This document shows, one piece after another, positions 8,492 to 42,102 of a stretch of 64,000 bases of DNA. Positions within the stretch are counted from its first letter, which is position 1; every line of letters begins with the position of its first letter. Source of the DNA: Eledone cirrhosa (taxonomy: Eukaryota); assembly GCA_964016885.1 (NCBI GenBank), contig OZ024740.1:74276001-74340000 (forward strand), given 5' to 3'. The translations under genes and the position numbers were made by a program. The notes beneath the pieces were generated by a model. It made no database searches and was not told where the DNA came from. It saw only the letters and a program-made list of their open reading frames with translations.

Positions 8492-10955
<2,464 letters not shown>

Positions 10956-11359
10956 ATTAAAATAACAGATTAAAGTTTAAGCAAAGAATCGCTGCTTTCA
11001 CCCTTAACGGGATCTTCTGAAACTAACAAAGTCAATCTGTAAACGCAGAACTGGATATTTAAAAAAACGTTGCAACCGGAGGAAGACAGGAAGTCGATAC
11101 TTTGGTTCGTGGAAACGTTTGCTGGCAAAGAACGGGAAAAAACGAATATAATACGTCATTAATAGGAGCGGTGAAAAACAATTACGCGCAAAGACAGAAC
11201 CACGTTTATGATATAAAAGAGGTTGTAGACTAATGTTCTCTTAGGTGGTGCATGGAGACGTTCTGTGGCAATGAACGAAAAAAACGAAGATAATACGTCA
11301 TATGTGGAGCGTAGAGAACAGCACGCAAAGACAAAACCACGTAAATGGTATAGCATAAG

Positions 11360-11490
11360 GGTAAATTAGAGAACATAGAAATAAAAATAGAATCTACACA
11401 CAGAAAAGACGCAATGTTTAAACAAATCACAGAGGCAATAAACATAAACGAACTCCAACCAAAATTAAATAGAAAACATGAATGGAACAG
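11360..11490 (+). mobile_element. Penelope-like GIY-YIG C-terminal remnant
   Basis: Translates as KLENIEIKIESTHRKDAMFKQITEAININELQPKLNRKHEW, resembling the PLE end motif EA..I....P.LN...E. Confidence 0.55.
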
Positions 11491-11779
11491 CAACATCACA
11501 ACTTACAATTAAGGACAAAATGAAAACACAGACGCACTTAGAACAAACAACCAACCAGTAACATGTAAATAAACAAATAAATAAACAAATATAAACACAC
11601 ACAGACACCCGGATGTAACACATGCGCAAACTAAGCACACAGCACACACAAAAACAAAATGGCGTAGGACAGAACAAAGGAAAGGCACGAAAACAAAAAA
11701 AAGAATCCCCAGTCACTGAAGAGGTCACAGAATGTGTGACGAAAGAACTTTGACAATATATGAACAATCATCTCGTTGT

Positions 11780-11963
11780 GGAACCAACCAACCAACCGGA
11801 AATTTATAAATTCCTAAATTTATAAATTTATTATAATAAATTGAAGTGAAAGCAACTGGTGCGTGTGTTTCTTATTGGCAACATGACCCTCCCAAAGTAT
11901 AACAATATCGGTTTCAACACACGTTTTCAGATAAAGAATCTTGCTAAACAAATTCAGAAACGA
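11780..11963 (+). repeat. Unclassified interspersed repeat; second copy inverted at ~22146-22310
   Basis: catgaccctcccaaagtataacaatatc...aagaatcttgctaaacaaattcagaaacga matches the reverse complement of 22146-22270. Confidence 0.7.
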
Positions 11964-12136
11964 TATATATATACATATATATATGTATATATATATGTAT
12001 ATATGTGTATATCTATATATGTGTGTGTATCGTATATATATATATGTGTGTATATATATATATATGTGTGTATATATATATATGCATGTATATATATATA
12101 TGTGTGTATATATATATATGTGTATATATATATGTG

Positions 12137-12171
<35 letters not shown>

Positions 12172-12357
12172 GTGTAACCCGAGATTCCACCAGCCAAAAG
12201 CTAATCCCAGGTCCTCTTTCCAGCCCACACATTTGATAACATGGATCCCTACAATGCCAACTGGGATGCAATTATGAACGAACTATCACATGTCGACTGG
12301 TCTTTTACACATATATGTGTGTGTATATATATATATGTGTGTGTGTATATATATATA

Positions 12358-12418
<61 letters not shown>

Positions 12419-12419
<1 letters not shown>

Positions 12420-12910
12420 AACAAATGAGATCGTGTAGGTGTCACGACAAAAAAAAAAACACACAGTCCACGCTGTAGAATGTGGCCGTGTAGGCAACAC
12501 GGTAAAAACCTCCCAGCCCCACACTGTAAATGTGGTTGGTGTTAGGAAGGGCATCCAGCTGTAGAAAACCCGCCAGACAGTCCACGCTGTAATGTGGCCG
12601 TGTAGGCAACACGGTAAAAACCTCCCAGCCCCACACTGTAAATGTGGTTGGTGTTAGGAAGGGCATCCAGCTGTAGAAAACCCGCCAGACAGTCCACGCT
12701 GTAATGTGGCCGTGTAGGCAACACGGTAAAAACCTCCCAGCCCCACACTGTAAATGTGGTTGGTGTTAGGAAGGGCATCCAACTGTAGAAAACCCGCCAG
12801 ACAGTCCTATGCTAGCAAGACAACCACTCTTGCCTCAAGTGGGAAAACCCCCGTCCAAACCCATGCAAGCGTGGAACACGGACGCTAAACCTGATGATGA
12901 TGATGATGAT
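12419..12910 (+). mobile_element. RTE family A 3' UTR with a triplicated 112-bp internal unit
   Basis: Three copies of acagtccacgctgt...aaacccgccag start at 12463, 12577 and 12689, followed by a (gat)n tail. Confidence 0.88.
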
Positions 12911-25453: not shown

Positions 25454-26411
25454 ATCTGGGTGACAAAATCAGCAGTGGTGGAGGGTGCTCTGAAAGTACA
25501 GTAGCTAGAGTCAGAACTGGATGGAAAAAGTTCAGAGAGCTTATACCACTATTAGCCGCTAAAGGGTTCTCCCTAAAAATGAAAGGCAGGTTGTATGATG
25601 CCTGCATACGGACAGCAATGTTGCATGGCAGTGAGACCTGGGCATTGTGTGCAGAGGATATACGCAGACTAGAGAGGAATGAAGCTTGCATGCTCCGCTG
25701 GATGTGTAATAGTAATATACGTGAACGGCAAAGCATAAACGAACTAAGGAAAAAATTAGAAATAAGAGGGATCAGATGTTGTTTACTCGAGAGAAGGCTA
25801 CGTTGGTATGGACACGTGATGCGCATGAAAGTCGATAGCTGTATAACAAAGTGCAGGGCAATAAAGATAGACGGTAGCCACGGAATAGGCAGACCTAGAA
25901 AAACCTGGGACGAGCTGATAAACTCCGACCTCACACACTTACACCTCTCCAAGACAATGTCACTGGACCGAGACCTTTGGCGGTACTCAGTAATAGAGAA
26001 GACCCGCCTTACCTAAATACATAGAAAAACCTACTACAGTCAGTAGGCATCTCTAACAAAATACACCCCCGTCCCACCACCCCCACCCCATCCACACCGC
26101 CCCCTTCTATGTAAAGTTATGTTGGTGCCACACCATCCAGGCCAAAACAAATGAGATCGTGTAGGTGTCACGACAAAAAAACACACAGTCCACGCTGTAA
26201 ATGTGGCCGTGTAGGCAACACGGTAAAAACCTCCCAGACCCACACTGTAAATGTGGTTGGTGTTAGGAAGGGCATCCAACTGTAGAAAACCTGCCAGACA
26301 GTCCTATGCGAGCAAGACAATCACTCTTGCCTCAAGTGGGAAAACCCCCGTCCAAACCCATGCAAGCGTGGAACACAGACGTTAAACGTTGATGATGATG
26401 ATGATGATGAT
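25454..26411 (+). mobile_element. RTE family A 3' fragment
   Basis: Open frame [11 protein letters not shown]...MLHGSETW...[10 protein letters not shown]...GRPRKTW, then the 3' UTR and a (gat)n tail. Confidence 0.92.
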
Positions 26412-28297: not shown

Positions 28298-28388
28298 AGG
28301 GTCCAAGAGGCGATTAGGAAAATGAAAAATGGTAAGGCTGCCGGACCATCGGGAATAGTTGCTGAGATGCTGAAGGCATCAGGGGACA
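28298..28388 (+). mobile_element. 90-bp internal RTE ORF2 fragment
   Basis: VQEAIRKMKNGKAAGPSGIVAEMLKASG; compare VSKAIRDMKIGKATGPSGIAAEMLKASG in the family B ORF. Confidence 0.75.
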
Positions 28389-28460
28389 CCAAAATCAGTG
28401 ACAGGTCTCGATTCACTCGCGAGATACATCACAGCTACACTATATATTTAAACATATATA

Positions 28461-28520
28461 CAGTGATACCTCGCTACTTGGCGGTTCAACTATCGCGGAT
28501 TCACGATTTTGCGCATTTTT
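28461..28520 (+). mobile_element. Tigger/pogo-like terminal inverted repeat remnant
   Basis: ta|cagtgatacctcgctacttggcggttcaactatcgcggattcacg is a typical pogo-family end; the partner TIR was not found. Confidence 0.45.
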
Positions 28521-28716
28521 AGAATATATATATGAACACCTAAAATTTTTCATTAAATCCATTAAAATATTAATAATAAACACAGTTCTAATCATACGCT
28601 ATATATATATATATATATATATAAATATAAGTAATTAATACCGTATAAATGGTACAAAGACTGTTTATGTAAAATGTATTTCTCAACAGAGTATTGAATA
28701 CTTAGGAGAAATTCAA

Positions 28717-28910
28717 AACGAAGAGTGATAAAATTTCAAGCAAAGAGTTTAATTAGGTAATGACTTACAAATTTGTTTCAGTATATAGACAAAGCCTGAA
28801 GCGCTAATTATAATAATTAGTTAATAATATTATATTAAAGATATACTGAAACAAATTTGTAAGTCATTACCTAATTAAACTCTTTGCTTGAAATGTTATC
28901 ATTCTTCGTT
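28717..28910. repeat. ~70-bp inverted repeat around a degenerate hammerhead-like hairpin
   Basis: 28717-28786 is the reverse complement of 28841-28910. The spacer has cctgaagc-gctaatta-ta-taattagt. Confidence 0.8.
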
Positions 28911-30029
28911 GAGAGAGAGAGAGAGAGAGAGAGATTTATCTAGTCCTTCGCTCAAGATTAATCTATAAGTTTAGATGTCTGCCTTCGTTTAAGTAAATAT
29001 TACAGTAAGATTTTTAATATAAACAACTACAAAAAACAATTAATATTAAAACGAAAAAATTATCAATGATAAAAGAAGCGGATGCAACTTTTTTTTTTAT
29101 AAAGTTATATTCCTGTTTCTTTAAAGAACATTTCATTTTTGTTCTATTGTAGGCGAAATAATGCAATGGTTTAATAGGGAAGATATAACTTACCAATTAT
29201 GTCTCTAACCGTGTAACGCTTTTTAAGTAGATAACTACAATTGAAAATACTAAAGAAATGCAACCAACAATTCAATTTGAAAGTCGTCTACTTATAGTGA
29301 CAGTGTATTACTGGTACTTTATTTTATCAACCCCGTAACGATGAAAGGCAAAAATGCAAATGTTTAAAATTTAAATTGCCTTAATTCTATCGTCTGCTGT
29401 TTCATTAAAGGGAGATTCTCGTCTGTATTTAATTCTATCGTCTACTGTTCCACTAAACAGATATACCTCCACTATCGTCTCTATTTATACATTTTAACTT
29501 ATAACTTATACACATTTGATTTGAAATATTTTATCTAGTCCCCCCTCTCAATATTATGATGATTTCTTTCGAATGAAACAGTTCTAGTCCTGTAGAAGCC
29601 ATTTATATATATAATTGAACTGAGTTAAAAATTCACAATATTTATAATTAAATAAGCTCATATATATATGTGTGTATTTATCTGTTTATTGTATTATATA
29701 TAATGTGTGTATATACAGGATGTCCCCCAAAAATATATACACACTTCAACAGCATTCTAATAACTATTGCTTGTACAGGTAATCAAAGTGTCAATCGAAT
29801 GTTAGTTTCGTGTTTTAACAGTACAAATTTACAATACACACATAAAACCAGTGTATATACATACATGAGTGTGTATACACATACATGAATGTGTATATAC
29901 AATATATATGTATATATATATATAGACACATATATTCACGGTGCAACGGAACATTAAAATATAGATGCGGGAGGGGGGTGTATATATAGGGGCGCTGGGA
30001 TAAAGGAGTGTAAAGCGTGTGTAATTGAT

Positions 30030-30260
30030 ATATTGAAGGAGAGGAGCGTGCAGCGATAGAGTAACAAATATATAGAGAGGGGGAGAGATGGTATTGAAGG
30101 GGAGGAGTGCAAAGAGTAAGAGAGATATATATAGAGACGGAACAGATAGAGAGAAACAGGCGTAAGTAACAGTGGAAGAGATATATAGAGAGGGGGAAAC
30201 GTGTTATTGAAGGGGAGGAGTGTAAAGCGAAAGCGTAAGATATATATAGAGAGAGGGGGA
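30030..30260. repeat. Purine-rich minisatellite (~60/120-bp units)
   Basis: Recurrent tattgaagg(g/a)gaggag and atatatagagagggggg. Confidence 0.6.
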
Positions 30261-30263
30261 ATA

Positions 30264-30321
<58 letters not shown>

Positions 30322-30478
30322 ACACTTACTCTGATTGGTTGAAAATTAGCCAATGACATACGATCACCACCACCACGGCTATCCCCGAAAAATTTATGAA
30401 GAAGCTAGGCATATATGTTATGTTAGAACACGAAAAGTGAACATTCTGTTGTTTCACACTTTTCGTGTTCTAACAGAT

Positions 30479-31573
30479 ACCAGCTAGAAAAATGCGTACA
30501 GCAAAAAAAAGTAATATTGTTGGAATATAAACCTTTAAAAATACAGGACAAGAAACTAAAATAAAACTTTAAAAGAATAGGACAAGAAACTAAGATAAAA
30601 CTTTAAAAGAATAGGACAAGAAACTAAGATAAAACTTTAAAGAATTGGATAAGAAATAAAAAATTTTTCAATAATATTAGTGGCAAAATTTTTATTGGTA
30701 AAAAATCGAGTTCCACATTCATAGGCTCTGGGTTCCACATTCAGAGGTCGTCGTCAGACCGGGGGGATCATTTGATCCTGGTTTGAACACCAATTGGGCC
30801 ATAACCATACCCCTATTTCATCATTCGGCGACACGCGTCATGTGTCATGCATAATGTGAATGGACCCATGGGCCCATGAGCACAGATCTTGAGCAGCAGC
30901 GGACGGTCTTGTTGTCCCGCTCATCCTTGATCTTGACCAACCCGTCCATCTTCCCCTTGCATCTTGTCCTTGAGCTCAAGTCCGGCAGTCCAGATGAATG
31001 TGTGCCACAGCTTTCTGGTACAGGAAGGGGGAGCAGGAGGGCTGGAGGGATGACGGGACAGAGGGAGGGAGGACCGGTGGTTGAGGGAGGTGCCATAGTC
31101 GGTGGTCAGAGTCGATATCTTGTCCCGGTCGTCTTCTCCATCTTCGTCTGGTGTTGCGGGACCAGAAGTGCATTCTTGGAGGAGACCTGCAGCTGCATCG
31201 GCCAATTCTTCTTGCAATGGTCATTCTGACGGAGCAGAACTGCTCAGCCAACCAACCCCAACCAGAACCAACCACTCAGGGGCAACGCACAATGAGAGCA
31301 TGACAATTATTATGCACTAATCAAGAAGATACTGGGGCATAGCACAGGAAACGAATAAAAAAATTTTGCCACTAATATTATTGTAAAATTTTTTATTTCT
31401 TGTCCAATTCTTTAAAGTTCTATCTTAGTTTCTTGTCCTATTCTTTTAAAGTTTTATCTTAGTTTCTTGTCCTATTCTTTTAAAGTTTTATTTTAGTTTC
31501 TTGTCCTGTATTTTTAAAGGTTTATATTCGAACAATATTACTTTTTTTTGCTGTACGCATTTTTCTATCTGGT
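30479..31573. repeat. ~215-bp inverted repeats (30479-30692 / 31357-31573) with internal ~31-bp tandem subrepeats
   Basis: accagctagaaaaatgcgtacagc...gtggcaaaattttt versus aaaaattttgccac...gctgtacgcatttttctatctggt. About 3 copies of aaactttaaaagaataggacaagaaactaagat per arm. Confidence 0.92.
30845..31301 (-). pseudogene. GC-rich coding relic of unknown family inside the inverted repeats
   Basis: ATG at 31301 opens MLSLCVAPEWLVLVGVGWLSSSAPSE*PLQEELADAAAG...WHTFIWTAGLELKDKMQG, with a probable frameshift to KMDGLVKIKDERDNKTVRCC. No family recognised. Confidence 0.35.
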
Positions 31574-31846
31574 CTACTATTTTTTAAGGCAATGCAAGCA
31601 ACAACTATCTAATAATTAAATGATCATAGTGAATTACTGACAAGTGATTGACATTTTAAAGTTCTTTTGAGTATAATTGCAATCTAGTTGAGGCAACTGG
31701 CTTAATGACAAAGCTAGTAAATCATGAATGCATTTGAGATGATTAGTGCATAATAGTGAATTGGTGAAACTTTTGCATTTCAATGGTGTTACAACAATAG
31801 ATGTAAGTTATATAGTAGTAATACTTTATTATTTTAACTTTTTAGA

Positions 31847-32206
31847 ATGGACAAAAACCCATGCAAAGAAATGACTTTGACTGCAGTGATTCTCTCCAAT
31901 TTACTTACAAAGCAAAACGTGGTCAAATACCTTATCATCTCTGATAAAATGCCCATTGAATCACTGAAAATCGGATGCATGGAATTCCTCATAAAATGCA
32001 CCTATGAATCGGAAGCCATCACATATATCAATGGATATAGGGAGTTGTTCACACTGGAAGACCATCACTTCATTTGTGACTTCATCAGTTATCTCCACGA
32101 TTATCTCAGACACCTAATGCCATTGATGAGAGGTGATCAAATGTGTGAGCATGTAACTAATCTTATAGAAGTTGTTATCAACCACCTGGCTTTTAGTGAC
32201 ATTTGA
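31847..32206 (+). CDS. Orphan 119-aa protein, preceded by a 43-nt GT-AG intron (31803-31845)
   Basis: Non-repetitive ORF. The donor gtaagt at 31803 and polypyrimidine ttttag at 31845 lie immediately before the ATG; aataaa follows at ~32283. Confidence 0.5.
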   Translation: MDKNPCKEMTLTAVILSNLLTKQNVVKYLIISDKMPIESLKIGCMEFLIKCTYESEAITYINGYRELFTLEDHHFICDFISYLHDYLRHLMPLMRGDQMCEHVTNLIEVVINHLAFSDI

Positions 32207-32359
32207 CTGATAATGATGTATTTTTAAAAAGTATGTGTACATTCTTGTTACTATTTTAAGGCAATGCAAGCAACAACTATTTAATAAAATTTAAATTTAA
32301 AAATGACCATTGTGCATTACTAGTATGATAACATTTTATTAAGTCAAAAAATTAGTCAG

Positions 32360-33173
32360 TCAGCCATAGAACAAGGACCAGGTGGCAAAAACATTGGCAA
32401 AAATTTGTGTCAATTTAAGATTTCCAACATTGTTCAAATGAATCATATCTGGTTTGAAGTCAGATTTGTCAAATTTTGACCAATTTTCAATGTTGTGAAG
32501 ATTGGGCAAGTTCAATTTTTGAATCATTTCTTTCATGCAGTAATTAAACTTTTCCAAACGAGAATTTCTCTTGCCCAAGTCATTTTTATTTTCAATTACA
32601 CTTTGTAGACGTGGAATGACACCACTGTAGAAAATGGGTGTACAGTGGTGCTTTTCCGCTATTTTCTGTAGCCTTGCAAAGAGACTCTTCTCCTGTTTTT
32701 CCGGTTTTGTGCCTCGAATGGGCACTTTGTCCTTAATTTACAAATAAATGATTAATAAAAAATACTTGGGCAAAAATTATTGTAATACTTTGCACAGCTT
32801 TGTAGTGCCAACGGTGCGACGAGGATTCAGATCATTAGAGCCGACATGAACCACCAATACTTTCACAAAAGGACAACAGATAACAATGTTGGCGATTAAC
32901 ATTACCTGGCCCTGACGGGCCCCAGGTATACAAAATATCTAAGTATTTTTGTTGGTATGATAAGTAAATACATTTGAATTAATATTTTTATACCTTCTGG
33001 TCATTCGATTTCGCCACATTTTTAATTATGGATTTGTAAAAACTGGCATGAATGTGAATTTGATCAGTCCAATTGCCCGATTTTAGTGAAAAGTTTTGAT
33101 TCGAAATGGAAATACTCCATTTCCGTGCCATGGAAAAAATGAATAAGCCGATCAAAAAGCCGCGAAACATCAT
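32360..33173 (-). CDS. Spliced SGNH/GDSL-type esterase (3 predicted exons: 33173-32994, 32938-32789, 32731-32360)
   Basis: Block I-like KSIIKNV, block II IFCIPGAR, block III VLVVHVGSNDL, IFYSGVIPR and block V DMIHLNNVG. Removing phase-0 introns 32993-32939 (55 nt) and 32788-32732 (57 nt) joins them in frame. Confidence 0.72.
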
Positions 33174-34209
33174 TTTTAATTAAGCGAAATTAGTGGATGC
33201 AAATCTCAGAAAATATTGTACACTATTCGCACCTATCGCACTATTCGCACCTATCGGTACAAAAAATCGCACGACTGTTAATAATACTAGAAGTGCAAAC
33301 TATCTGTTGAATACCTGGTATATGAAGAACAACCAATACGATTGGTCGGCGATCGATCTTGAAGAAGAATGAAGAATGAAGTGAAATTTTGGTCTGGTTG
33401 TTGTCATCGGTGTTTCGCAGAGATGCTGGCACGAACAAAGGTGTCAGTGACACAAAGTTGTCCGCTTGAACAAAGGTGTCGGTCCGACAAAGGTGACAGT
33501 CAGACAGACAGTCAGAGAGTGTCACAGTCGGTGCGACAAAGCGATCGATGCGATTAAAAAAAATTTAACTCACATGTTTACCTATATTTTCACAAACTAT
33601 TGATAGATTGGTACAAAAAATAGCTTTGATAATAAACATAAATTTTTAACGAAGTATTTAAAAAGCATTTTAGCAGTGAAAAGTGAAGTAATGTTTCACA
33701 CTGACGTAGTCAATTAGGAGGAGGGGATTCGGCGATTTGACTACATTTGACTAACGTAATCACAATCACAAGAGTTCCGCCGAAAAAAATTCGTCATTTC
33801 TGGATTACCTCCCCTAGCGTCACGCTTACTACTCACTCACTTGAACACAAGATTTATCAGCAAACTTTGATTATAAACTTTTTCCCGCTGGACCAAATTT
33901 CTAGATTTTTAAGCCAAAAGATGTGTAATGATCTACTGTTCATGCTCATATAAGTTTTATCTCAGTTAAATAAAGTAGAGCCGCGCTGTACTGTCATAAA
34001 CAGACGATTGCCAACGAAAACACGACCACAACAATATTACTAAACGGACTACCGTCCGTTTAGGATATATATAATATCAGGTTCAATAAAACGTGGTTTT
34101 GATGACTCCTAACCAGTAGACGATCCGGTGGACCATCCACCATAGGGACCACAAACTATGGGTGTTTGTTGTTGTCCATTGGTACGGGGTGTAGGGGACC
34201 TACAGGGGG

Positions 34210-34928
34210 GTTTATCCATATAGCTTGAGGAAAGTTCCCGTCCTTAGGTGTCTGCAGGCACCGAATAAGTCGGTCCTTCTGTTTAATAGCTTGGTTCCGC
34301 CATGAAGTATCTCGAGTGTCCCACTAAGACAGAGGTTGCAAATACCAGACCCACCTCTGTCTGGGGGAACCTATCTAACCACAGGTAAGACCACAGAGTG
34401 CGGGGTCTTTTCAAGTTTGAGCTTCCAGGTCAATTCAGAAAGGGCCGTACATTTCCTCTTATCTATTCTGTTAAAGTAATGGCGATGGTTATACCACCGA
34501 TCTTTGAAGCTCGTCACTGTGGATCCTATGTAGTGGTGCTCCGAGTTAGGGGTTGTGACCTTGCACCTGTAGACTACGTTTTTCGTCATGCATTCTTTAC
34601 TAAGGGGGCATAGTGATGGGTCTCTGCAATTACATGACTTCTAAAGCCCCACCACATGTACCGCATGGTTACCATCACTCGGGGGTTGGCTGGGTAGCCT
34701 CCGCAATCAGCACAGGGTCGTTGGGTTCCGGTGTGCTAGTTGGGCCTGTTCGGGTTCCGGTGCATCCCGCATGCTGGTTCTGTTGGGTGGCTCCGGGGTT
34801 TACGGTGGTATTAGAGGCAGTGAGCCTATTCCTATTTATGCCAACTATGTGCTGGGCTACGGAGCATGTGGTTGAGTAGGAAAGTTTCACCGTGTGCCTG
34901 TTGAATATTTTATGGTACTTGTGGGCCC
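34210..34928 (-). mobile_element. Penelope-like element fragment (GIY-YIG)
   Basis: HKIFNRHTVKLSYS...CMTKNVVYRCKVTT...YIGSTVTSFKDRWYNH...LSELTWKLK, followed by CNLC. Confidence 0.87.
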
Positions 34929-34960
34929 TATATATATATATATATAATATATATATGTAG

Positions 34961-35939: not shown

Positions 35940-36139
35940 NNNNNNNNNNNNNNNNNNNNNNNNNNNNNNNNNNNNNNNNNNNNNNNNNNNNNNNNNNNNN
36001 NNNNNNNNNNNNNNNNNNNNNNNNNNNNNNNNNNNNNNNNNNNNNNNNNNNNNNNNNNNNNNNNNNNNNNNNNNNNNNNNNNNNNNNNNNNNNNNNNNNN
36101 NNNNNNNNNNNNNNNNNNNNNNNNNNNNNNNNNNNNNNN
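35940..36139. other. Assembly gap (200 N)
   Basis: Run of N. Confidence 1.
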
Positions 36140-40800
<4,661 letters not shown>

Positions 40801-40805
40801 TGGTT

Positions 40806-40968
40806 GTAAATGTGGTTGGTGTTAGGAAGGGCATCCAGCTGTAGAAAACCCGCCAGACAGTCCTATGCGAGCAAGACAATCACTCTTGCCTCAAGTGGGA
40901 AAACCCCGTCCAAACCCATGCAAGCGTGGAACACAGACGTTAAACGTTGATGATGATGATGATGATGA
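40806..40968 (+). mobile_element. RTE family A 3' terminal fragment
   Basis: 3' UTR with a (gat)n tail. Confidence 0.85.
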
Positions 40969-40992
40969 TATAATATATATATATATATATAT

Positions 40993-42102
40993 GGAAGTAC
41001 TCAAACTGAACGGATACACAATATCCACCACAAACCGTGCCAGAAAGAACAGAGGACACCACACCCGAGGCACTAACCCTTGCTTCCTGAAGCTCCCACA
41101 CTTCAGTGAAGAAACAACAACAGCCATCCGCAGAGCCATCAGACGAGAGGGACTAGATATCCAACTGGCCCACTCAGGTCCTTCTCTACGCGGACAGCTA
41201 ACCAAAAGACATTCCACCAGACATGACAACTGCTGCAGACTAGCCAACTGCCCCATCAACGACACAGACCTATGCCACCAGGCTTACGTCGTATACAGAC
41301 TAGAGTGTGACAAATGCAACAAGTTCTACGTAGGTAGCACCACCAGGCCACTCCACATAAGAATAAAAGAACACCTCAATACTAACGCTTCCTCATTTAA
41401 GAAACACCTAGTTAAATGCAAAAACACCGACAAAACCATAACAGTTAGGATAGAAACTAAGCAAAGAAACCTCGGCAATCTTAGAATTAAGGAAGCACTA
41501 ATTATAGATAAAACACAACCACCAATCAATAATAGACTAGAACTCAACACCCAATTTATAACCTGATAGAGCTTCTAGCCCCATATTTACACCCCCCCCC
41601 CACACACACGCACGCACACACACACACACACACACTTACACCTCCACTTATTCTCTCTCACACATACACACACAAAACCAGTTCTAACACCAGATAACAC
41701 CTATCCCCCACATTTACGAATAGACTTATCTTCTCACACACACTCACATACTTACACCTTCATGCATTCTCCCACACACTTAAACAGGCATGTATATAAA
41801 AAAAAAAATTTAAAAAAAACCCTTTTAAAGGGAGACTACTCTTTATCCACCTAAGTTTAACTCTTTGACATTAGAGATAGAACAGATACTCTATATTTCC
41901 TGTCAGCATGGCTTGGCAAGCTAGTTAGAATGCTGGTTTGAGACCTTTATTTCCCTCTGAAGAAGAGATATTATCTCGAAAATTAAGGACATTTAAATAA
42001 ATCTAAGGTAAAAGACGAATTGTCAACAATATCTTTTGCAATTGCATTCTTTTTTCTATGTCCATACCTGCATTGTTTTGGCTTTATTATACATATTCAA
42101 AC

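Follow-up and report, generated by a model that had tools for sequence, protein, structure and literature searches.

Positions 30480–34065 of a 64,000-nucleotide stretch of the Eledone cirrhosa genome (GCA_964016885.1, contig OZ024740.1, positions 74,276,001 to 74,340,000 of the forward strand; the whole stretch is termed the window) are very probably an internally deleted, 3.6-kb copy of a ~12.6-kb Helitron of the HLE2 group, which was likely copied in trans and which ends in a 1.1-kb fold-back mirror repeat. This copy is termed element B. An earlier note, made from the letters of the window, had treated positions 30319–34063 as one DNA element that it could not assign, possibly a deleted, non-autonomous member of a large cargo-carrying transposon or endogenous virus of Crypton, Helentron or Maverick type. 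Searches of the 3.0-Gb genome confirmed that a deleted, non-autonomous member of a large cargo-carrying DNA transposon is present, and an assignment could be made since a parent encoding the transposition protein RepHel was found in the same genome.

Profile searches with DUF6570 detected 54 matching places in the genome, several of them 5–7 kb from matches to SGNH hydrolases, and the 20 loci that were fetched comprised 12 of B type, two of a sister family C, four of a family A and two of a fourth family, D. The longer copies with RepHel that the note had proposed to look for were thereby found. In the most complete B parent (G000:C28, ~42.936–42.949 Mb, 12.6 kb), a 5' hairpin is followed by RepHel, a multi-exon NADAR-like/SGNH gene, an antisense 119-aa open reading frame (ORF) and the fold-back. 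The B-parent RepHel contains DUF6570, Helitron_like_N, PIF1 and a C-terminal UCH protease domain (scan of the C12 and C2 copies); DUF6570 was matched in two B parents with E values of 1.5e-12 and 1.9e-14 and was absent from the HLE1 control. No Exo_endo_phos match indicating an apurinic/apyrimidinic (AP) endonuclease was found in RepHel, whose C-terminus is UCH-like.

Element B consists of parent positions 1–1158 joined to 10137–12630, and its 5' part (34066–33026) and 3' part (33032–30479) flank, in the parent, the ~9 kb that carry DUF6570, Helitron_like_N, PIF1 and UCH and that have been removed from the window copy. The junction is in frame, with a short imperfect microhomology, and retains the Ser of SGNH block I without the preceding Gly-Asp. 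The exact junction was detected at 98 places in the genome, compared with none for the control. Fifteen full-length B copies are 98.0–98.8% alike (mean 98.3%), which argues for a recent burst, and shorter derivatives with other deletions also exist. As the note had stated, there is no transposase within the window copy, and a copy holding only cargo genes might be taken for a Crypton, a Maverick/Polinton, an endogenous viral fragment or a single-copy host locus. However, the missing DNA encodes RepHel, and ~100 copies are dispersed in unrelated flanks, which refutes these identifications and leaves them practically no probability.

A point against this reading is that no unbroken RepHel ORF was present in any B parent examined, the longest being 1174 aa. 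Family A has unbroken ORFs of 2230–2245 aa at seven of the 54 DUF6570 loci, and family C has a 1904-aa RepHel ORF with the remainder in another frame. B was likely copied by RepHel supplied in trans, and C would be the likelier helper because its ends closely match those of B. Element B itself is an ordinary deletion derivative. Canonical HLE1 elements were considered as partners and rejected (3704 candidates, 150 scored, 20 loci checked), those whose ends were read having other termini.

The limits of the element were defined by end searches, which returned 761 candidates for the left end and 681 for the right end, of which 40 were scored and 30 loci fetched per end. The left end and the right end come from different families. 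Every left-end locus extends leftward past the TA tract and stops at 30478–30479, only the window copy continuing beyond; the right-end loci stop at 34066, and those long enough begin at 30479. The block is thus composed of two elements, B lying two bases from the end of the other, element A. Element A is the 3'-truncated, 5' 2.1 kb of a sister HLE2 family, whose parent is 12.8 kb long and encodes a 2230-aa RepHel-UCH.

The left boundary proposed in the note was consequently revised: positions 30319–30477 belong to family A, which reaches left to 28382, and the TA tract at ~30264–30319 is internal to A. The 19-bp hairpin at 30421–30475 is real (z -8.4), and is carried by element A along with a CCAAT-like motif near 30331. 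The left end named in the note is the 5' end of element A. No copies were seen whose ends fail to co-occur with the RepHel parent. The 10-bp hairpin at the right end was upheld, but the TA tract given as its flank amounts to a short run of TA, beyond which another repeat begins. The retention of CpG is weak, with an observed/expected ratio of 0.75 in the block and 0.65 in the remainder of the window.

The ends of both families were examined in dispersed copies. Elements A and B, both on the minus strand, have TC as their first bases, preceded by a host A, and CTRR as their last, followed by a host T; for B, TC begins at 34065 and CTGG ends at 30480, between host A 34066 and host T 30479. All unique 5' flanks (76/76 for B and C, 30/30 for A) have A directly before TC. 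At the 3' end, CTRR was present in 52/58 (B/C) and 15/15 (A) cases, and the following base was T in 54/58 and 15/15. An uninterrupted site was matched for 10 of the 59 copies with both flanks, five of which (two B, two C, one A) were informative, and all five showed A and T contiguous without target-site duplication; the other matches were low-complexity or the same locus, such as that of L088, which was locus L012 and was dropped. At L139 (G000:C28, 136.46 Mb), a C element lies within the NADAR-SGNH region of a B element and has a clean empty site between A and T.

The 5' stem-loop of B (34063–34040) precedes the left short inverted repeat (34041–34030). One pair of its stem is compensatorily swapped in family C, and the B/C hairpin pattern has 458 exact matches in the genome. 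Short subterminal inverted repeats measure 12 bp in both B and C, 11 bp in D and 10 bp in A. No significant hairpin was found in the 3' terminal 91 nt (z -0.03), where only a 3-bp hairpin precedes the end of B. The ends of A and B are of HLE1 type, but with the strong hairpin at the TC end. Most alignments between metagenome contigs were interrupted where an assembly or a repeat ended, and they yielded no clean termini, so that TC/CTRR ends are shown here for this genome alone; in the external family L261/L262/L264 described below, the outer arm does not end in CTRR.

In the autonomous partner, an HUH Rep and a PIF1 helicase are combined in RepHel, as in Helitron-like elements generally. A Rep tree (FastTree, 47 sequences, 388 columns) was built from 41 of 44 database relatives, families A, B and C, and three HLE1 of this genome as the outgroup; four sequences without the motif were left out, D was not included, and curated HLE2 references were not part of the set. 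The grouping A+(B,C) received a support of 1.00; it was placed with DUF6570 proteins that lack the endonuclease and was separate both from HLE1 and from Helentrons that carry it. The named database relatives are from a rotifer, insects and a sponge, and 15 of the 44 have UCH.

DUF6570 is named as an HLE2 marker, and HLE2 is described with short terminal inverted repeats (TIRs), a 3' stem-loop and insertion between T and T (PMC11417382). B departs from these termini, as, with RepHel as the reference, its hairpin is at the 5' end and its insertion is between A and T. It shares with HLE1 the 5' TC, the 3' CTRR and the A-T target, but has neither the strong hairpin ~11 nt before the 3' end nor an HLE1 Rep. 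The suggestion of a Helentron-like element in the note came close, as the HLE2 group is the right one; a strict Helentron has an AP endonuclease fused to RepHel and inserts between T and T, which is not the case here. Element B is thus an HLE2 member, and neither a Helentron nor HLE1 in the strict sense. To judge from its UCH domain, it may fall into HLE2 subgroup c or d, in which UCH is enriched (HELIANO, PMC11417382).

The long inverted-repeat cassette reported in the note is real, and occupies the terminal 1.1 kb of B. It was present in 36/40 B, 22/22 C and 13/16 A termini and in 14/15 further D loci, with CTAG followed by T at the end of 10 of them, and its arms measure 215, 190, 220 and 137 bp in four families of this genome. 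The fold-back belongs to the element in parents and derivatives alike. Although families A, B and D agree at only ~65% in their RepHel DNA, the same short motif recurs immediately upstream of the inner arm in all four families.

The read depth at the outer arm, which is far above that of the interior, and the abundance in this genome of repeats resembling MITEs (miniature inverted-repeat transposable elements) might suggest that the cassette is a separate TIR transposon of that kind, nested at the end of the element. This is very improbable, since the arm ends in the Helitron's own CTRR before T without target duplication, the arm sequence is particular to each family and carries the element's subterminal repeat, and variation is confined to the outer flank, the fixed inner junction already contradicting a nested MITE.

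The fold-back arms evolve in concert. Between B and C, 132/148 arm positions are identical (~11% different), whereas the two arms within each family agree at 149–150/150. Rare substitutions common to both arms of a copy numbered five in B, one in C and one in A, against 0.22, 0 and 0 expected; the last 75 nt of B contained none. Beyond this genome, long flanks were available for 14 of 86 related loci. Five loci of three families encoding RepHel-OTU with DUF6570 have fold-backs with arms of 173–304 bp that are 99–100% identical and begin 2.4–5.1 kb after the ORF, five such structures being found in 69 kb of downstream sequence and none in 96 kb of upstream sequence. In L261/L262/L264, five of six variable columns agree between both arms of each copy; the spacers differ by 5–7%, and the outer arms end at different points. 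The records of L261–L265 are titled bacterial metagenome-assembled genomes and hold animal-type HLE2 transposons, which are likely host DNA in the assembly.

Several observations count against a role for the fold-back. Rare arm substitutions that are not shared are far more numerous (97 in B, four in C, seven in A), and arm length differs within one copy in 10/32 (concordance p 0.07), so that the arms are not obviously re-copied at each jump. The inner arm is missing from an A copy whose 2245-aa ORF is unbroken and also from an older A relative; therefore, the fold-back is not indispensable. A fold-back was found at five of the nine external loci with at least 5 kb of downstream sequence and was missing from the other four. 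Long near-perfect inverted repeats also occur at two of 20 control HLE1 loci here, outside the elements.

Alternatively, though we consider it somewhat unlikely, the fold-back could descend from an old inverted duplication that is carried passively and whose arms are kept alike by occasional recombination, with no role in transposition or one at the RNA level only (hairpin RNA, convergent promoters). Copies without a fold-back, including the one with an unbroken ORF, would agree with such a passive origin, as would spacers unrelated between families and the rarity both of shared variants and of flipped spacers (1/35 B, 1/21 C, 0/13 A). It is disfavored by the similar geometry (137–304-bp arms, ~540–850-nt spacers) kept in families ~65% alike in RepHel DNA, and by the presence of the fold-back in other hosts as well, with a conserved junction motif.

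A role in transposition can be proposed by analogy with the HLE1 element Helraiser. RepHel would nick at the 5' TC, peel off one strand, stop at the 3' structure, cut after CTRR and join the strand into an AT site. In the displaced strand, the inner arm would pair with the last 215 nt, the pairing extending through the T that follows CTRR. The 215-bp stem would then place the cut site between CTRR and T in duplex and might replace the nearly absent 3' hairpin as the stop signal, a proposal that we favour over its rivals but rate somewhat short of an even chance.

If the strand were released linear, its paired 3' end could also prime the second strand: extended from the inner arm to the 5' end, it would yield a double-stranded intermediate with no need for another primer. 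The end of the stem coincides with the 3' terminus, and the template continues past the inner arm, where it carries the motif conserved in four families. Self-priming would also be consistent with the agreement between arms in L261/L262/L264 despite their different spacers and varied outer-arm ends. A product of the predicted kind was found at L138 (2226–8379; G000:C15, 42.865–42.871 Mb), which is a near-perfect palindromic dimer of a non-autonomous C element with arms of ~2.6 kb, with its centre in the fold-back arms (705 nt at 100%, loop of 21 nt) and extending into the inner flank; its host flanks contain no repeat of at least 150 nt. However, this is one palindrome among the 20 C loci fetched, and a break-induced fold-back could also yield it. 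An inverted B rearrangement at L054 is not centred in the arms and was not counted. Parvovirus terminal resolution gives an even flip/flop, unlike the rare spacer flips here, and these rare flips together with the copies without an inner arm argue against an obligatory rolling-hairpin cycle. Minus-strand priming is treated as an open point in PMC5876387. Helraiser is reported to make covalently closed circles, which have no free 3' end, and this counts against self-priming. Taken together, self-priming is regarded as unlikely. Equally doubtful is the broader proposal of a widespread animal clade of endonuclease-less HLE2, with C-terminal UCH or OTU, in which a conserved long fold-back lets the displaced strand prime itself. 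If true, self-priming would be a rolling-hairpin step in a transposon and would account for the conversion of Helitron single strands into duplex DNA.

In the window copy, the cargo genes act as passengers. Contigs of unknown kind from four runs contained no spliced joins and speak neither for nor against expression. Of the two micro-intron genes of the note, the 119-aa ORF is present, and the three short introns (43, 55 and 57 nt) are predicted from the sequence; the first exon of the supposed esterase is instead the start of the RepHel ORF. As read from its sequence, the SGNH "gene" of the window is a chimera in which the RepHel N-terminus is joined in frame to the parental NADAR-SGNH gene. 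Since the deletion fuses the RepHel start to SGNH block I, the first "exon" is not part of the esterase gene, and the two predicted downstream introns are. The SGNH-like exons matched Pfam Lipase_GDSL_3 below the cut-off (E 0.002); blocks I, II, III and V (Ser, Gly, Asn, Asp-x-x-His) are recognisable by eye in the parent, where the Pfam match is also sub-cut-off, and the window copy lacks the Gly-Asp of block I. A search for homologues of SGNH exon 3 returned none that was real, its two matches being repeat proteins. The NADAR assignment is weak, with two exons matching consecutive parts of the profile at E values of 0.003 and 0.075; the sole NADAR match genome-wide (E 5.7e-4, 4 candidates) lies in a B parent. 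With the NADAR-end exon, a PDB search was empty and a comparison with the fish Helentron protein P0040 was not significant. P0040 also lists Lipase_GDSL_2, and at L215 (2199–2837, minus strand) an SGNH ORF (Lipase_GDSL_2, E 5.5e-10) lies upstream of a RepHel-OTU relative, so SGNH recurs near HLE2.

Language-model features offer a BTB/BACK-like identity for the 119-aa ORF as a lead only; a homologue search gave nothing real, and a single-sequence fold (pLDDT 42) was not used. Direct repeats (~76%) at 31575–31658 and ~32251–32340 flank this ORF, and family C has one copy of the repeat and no such ORF, which may hint at a route of gene gain.

Table. Coordinates of features identified in the window
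Feature	Position	Strand	Remarks
Element A, sister HLE2 family, 5' 2.1 kb only (3'-truncated)	28382–30477	-	
Element B, non-autonomous deletion derivative of a ~12.6-kb HLE2 Helitron	30480–34065	-	3586 bp
Outer arm of fold-back, ends at 3' CTGG plus host T	30479–30693		215 nt, 98% to inner arm
Spacer, G+C-rich, broken coding-like sequence	30694–31358		665 nt
Inner arm of fold-back, contains 34-bp tandem units	31359–31573		215 nt
Motif adjoining inner arm, conserved in A, B, C and D	31580–31595	+	
119-aa ORF, BTB/BACK-like candidate, present in parent	31847–32206	+	predicted 43-nt GT-AG intron in 5' untranslated region, 31803–31845
SGNH-hydrolase-like part of parental NADAR-SGNH gene	32360–33025	-	predicted GT-AG introns 32993–32939 (55 nt) and 32788–32732 (57 nt)
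Deletion junction, in frame, short imperfect microhomology	33026–33032	-	
First codons of parental RepHel ORF, up to junction	33033–33173	-	
12-bp subterminal inverted repeat	34030–34041		partners 30510–30521 and, in inner arm, 31531–31542
5' terminal hairpin, from second base after terminal T	34040–34063	-	10-bp stem, 4-nt loop, z -5.3

To the right of B, positions 34067–34930 are a multi-copy repeat with a minus-strand GIY-YIG-like frame (34374–34640) that had no Pfam match and resembles Penelope-like retroelements. A fragment at 28300–28381 adjoins the truncation point of element A, and a second, similar one lies at 25470–26010; we take both to resemble the reverse transcriptase of an RTE-type long interspersed nuclear element. 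Positions 36000–41000 are ~5 kb of nearly pure TA microsatellite.

Further observations concern family C and the HLE1 of this genome. Many non-autonomous C copies (L121–L140) have at least two tandem 5' ends with several hundred bases of shared extra DNA between them, and are composite elements that have gained new 5' ends. The N-terminus of a C RepHel (L149, 3349–9060, ~residues 113–133) has a stretch ending in NPGP, which we assume to be 2A-peptide-like. The spacer of a C copy (L150, 2470–3084) has a 205-aa Cys/His-rich ORF, PHD-finger-like by eye and without a Pfam match. Near-identical HLE1 Rep matches on one strand, spaced at ~100 kb, at G000:C20 3.5–5.2 Mb, C27 13–15.5 Mb and C19 35–40 Mb suggest large tandem segmental arrays.

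It is the ends of the clade, rather than the derivative in the window, that matter. They mix HLE1 and HLE2 features, and tools built around a 3' hairpin or TIRs of 11–18 nt would overlook such elements or misplace their boundaries. The long 3' fold-back offers a defined cis element open to deletion or mismatching, and the unbroken ORFs of family A point to a natural, probably functional HLE2 in which termination and second-strand synthesis could be tested. The mechanistic work cited here, in the parts consulted, covers the reconstructed HLE1 Helraiser only.

Two features of these elements are already published, namely HLE2 with a 5' stem-loop (proto-Helentron, HLE2-reverse) and Helitron-borne SGNH (texim). 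A long 3' fold-back in Helitrons was not described in the open literature searched or in the HELIANO supplement, Repbase, Dfam and subscription papers being outside the search. The novelty of this HLE2 member would lie in its terminal structure; the families may be described in Repbase, Dfam or subscription papers.

HLE2 subgroups c and d, as outlined for HELIANO (PMC11417382), have in common with B a DUF6570-bearing RepHel with UCH and without AP endonuclease; B differs from the HLE2 described there by its A-T site, TC and CTRR ends, 5' hairpin and long 3' fold-back. The proto-Helentron of Phytophthora (PMC4067079) and the HLE2-reverse elements FoHeli3-5 (PMC5148889, PMC11417382) likewise combine an HLE2 enzyme lacking the endonuclease with a 5' stem-loop upstream of a short inverted repeat. 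Proto-Helentron also ends in CTAG and inserts between A and T (PMC4067079), but it starts with TT, FoHeli3-5 have other termini, neither is from an animal, and the descriptions on which this comparison is based mention no long 3' fold-back, UCH or NADAR-SGNH cargo. HLE1 Helitrons, including Helraiser (PMC4778049, PMC5876387), resemble B in the 5' TC, 3' CTRR, A-T site and lack of target duplication, and B departs from their published outline in its Rep clade, its DUF6570, its subterminal inverted repeats and the absence of a strong 3' hairpin. The non-autonomous Helentrons DINE-1/HINE (PMC4067079) are described, like B, as deletion derivatives that have subterminal inverted repeats, with a hairpin at one of their ends and a further inverted repeat close to the opposite one; unlike B, they occupy T-rich sites and carry the hairpin 3'-terminally, and the further repeat is short rather than 215 bp. 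The texim gene on fish Helitrons (PMC4021074) is, as in the B parent, an intron-bearing SGNH hydrolase gene carried as cargo. In B, SGNH lies behind a NADAR-like part and is fused, in the derivative, to the RepHel N-terminus; the likeness to texim may be one of gene type only.

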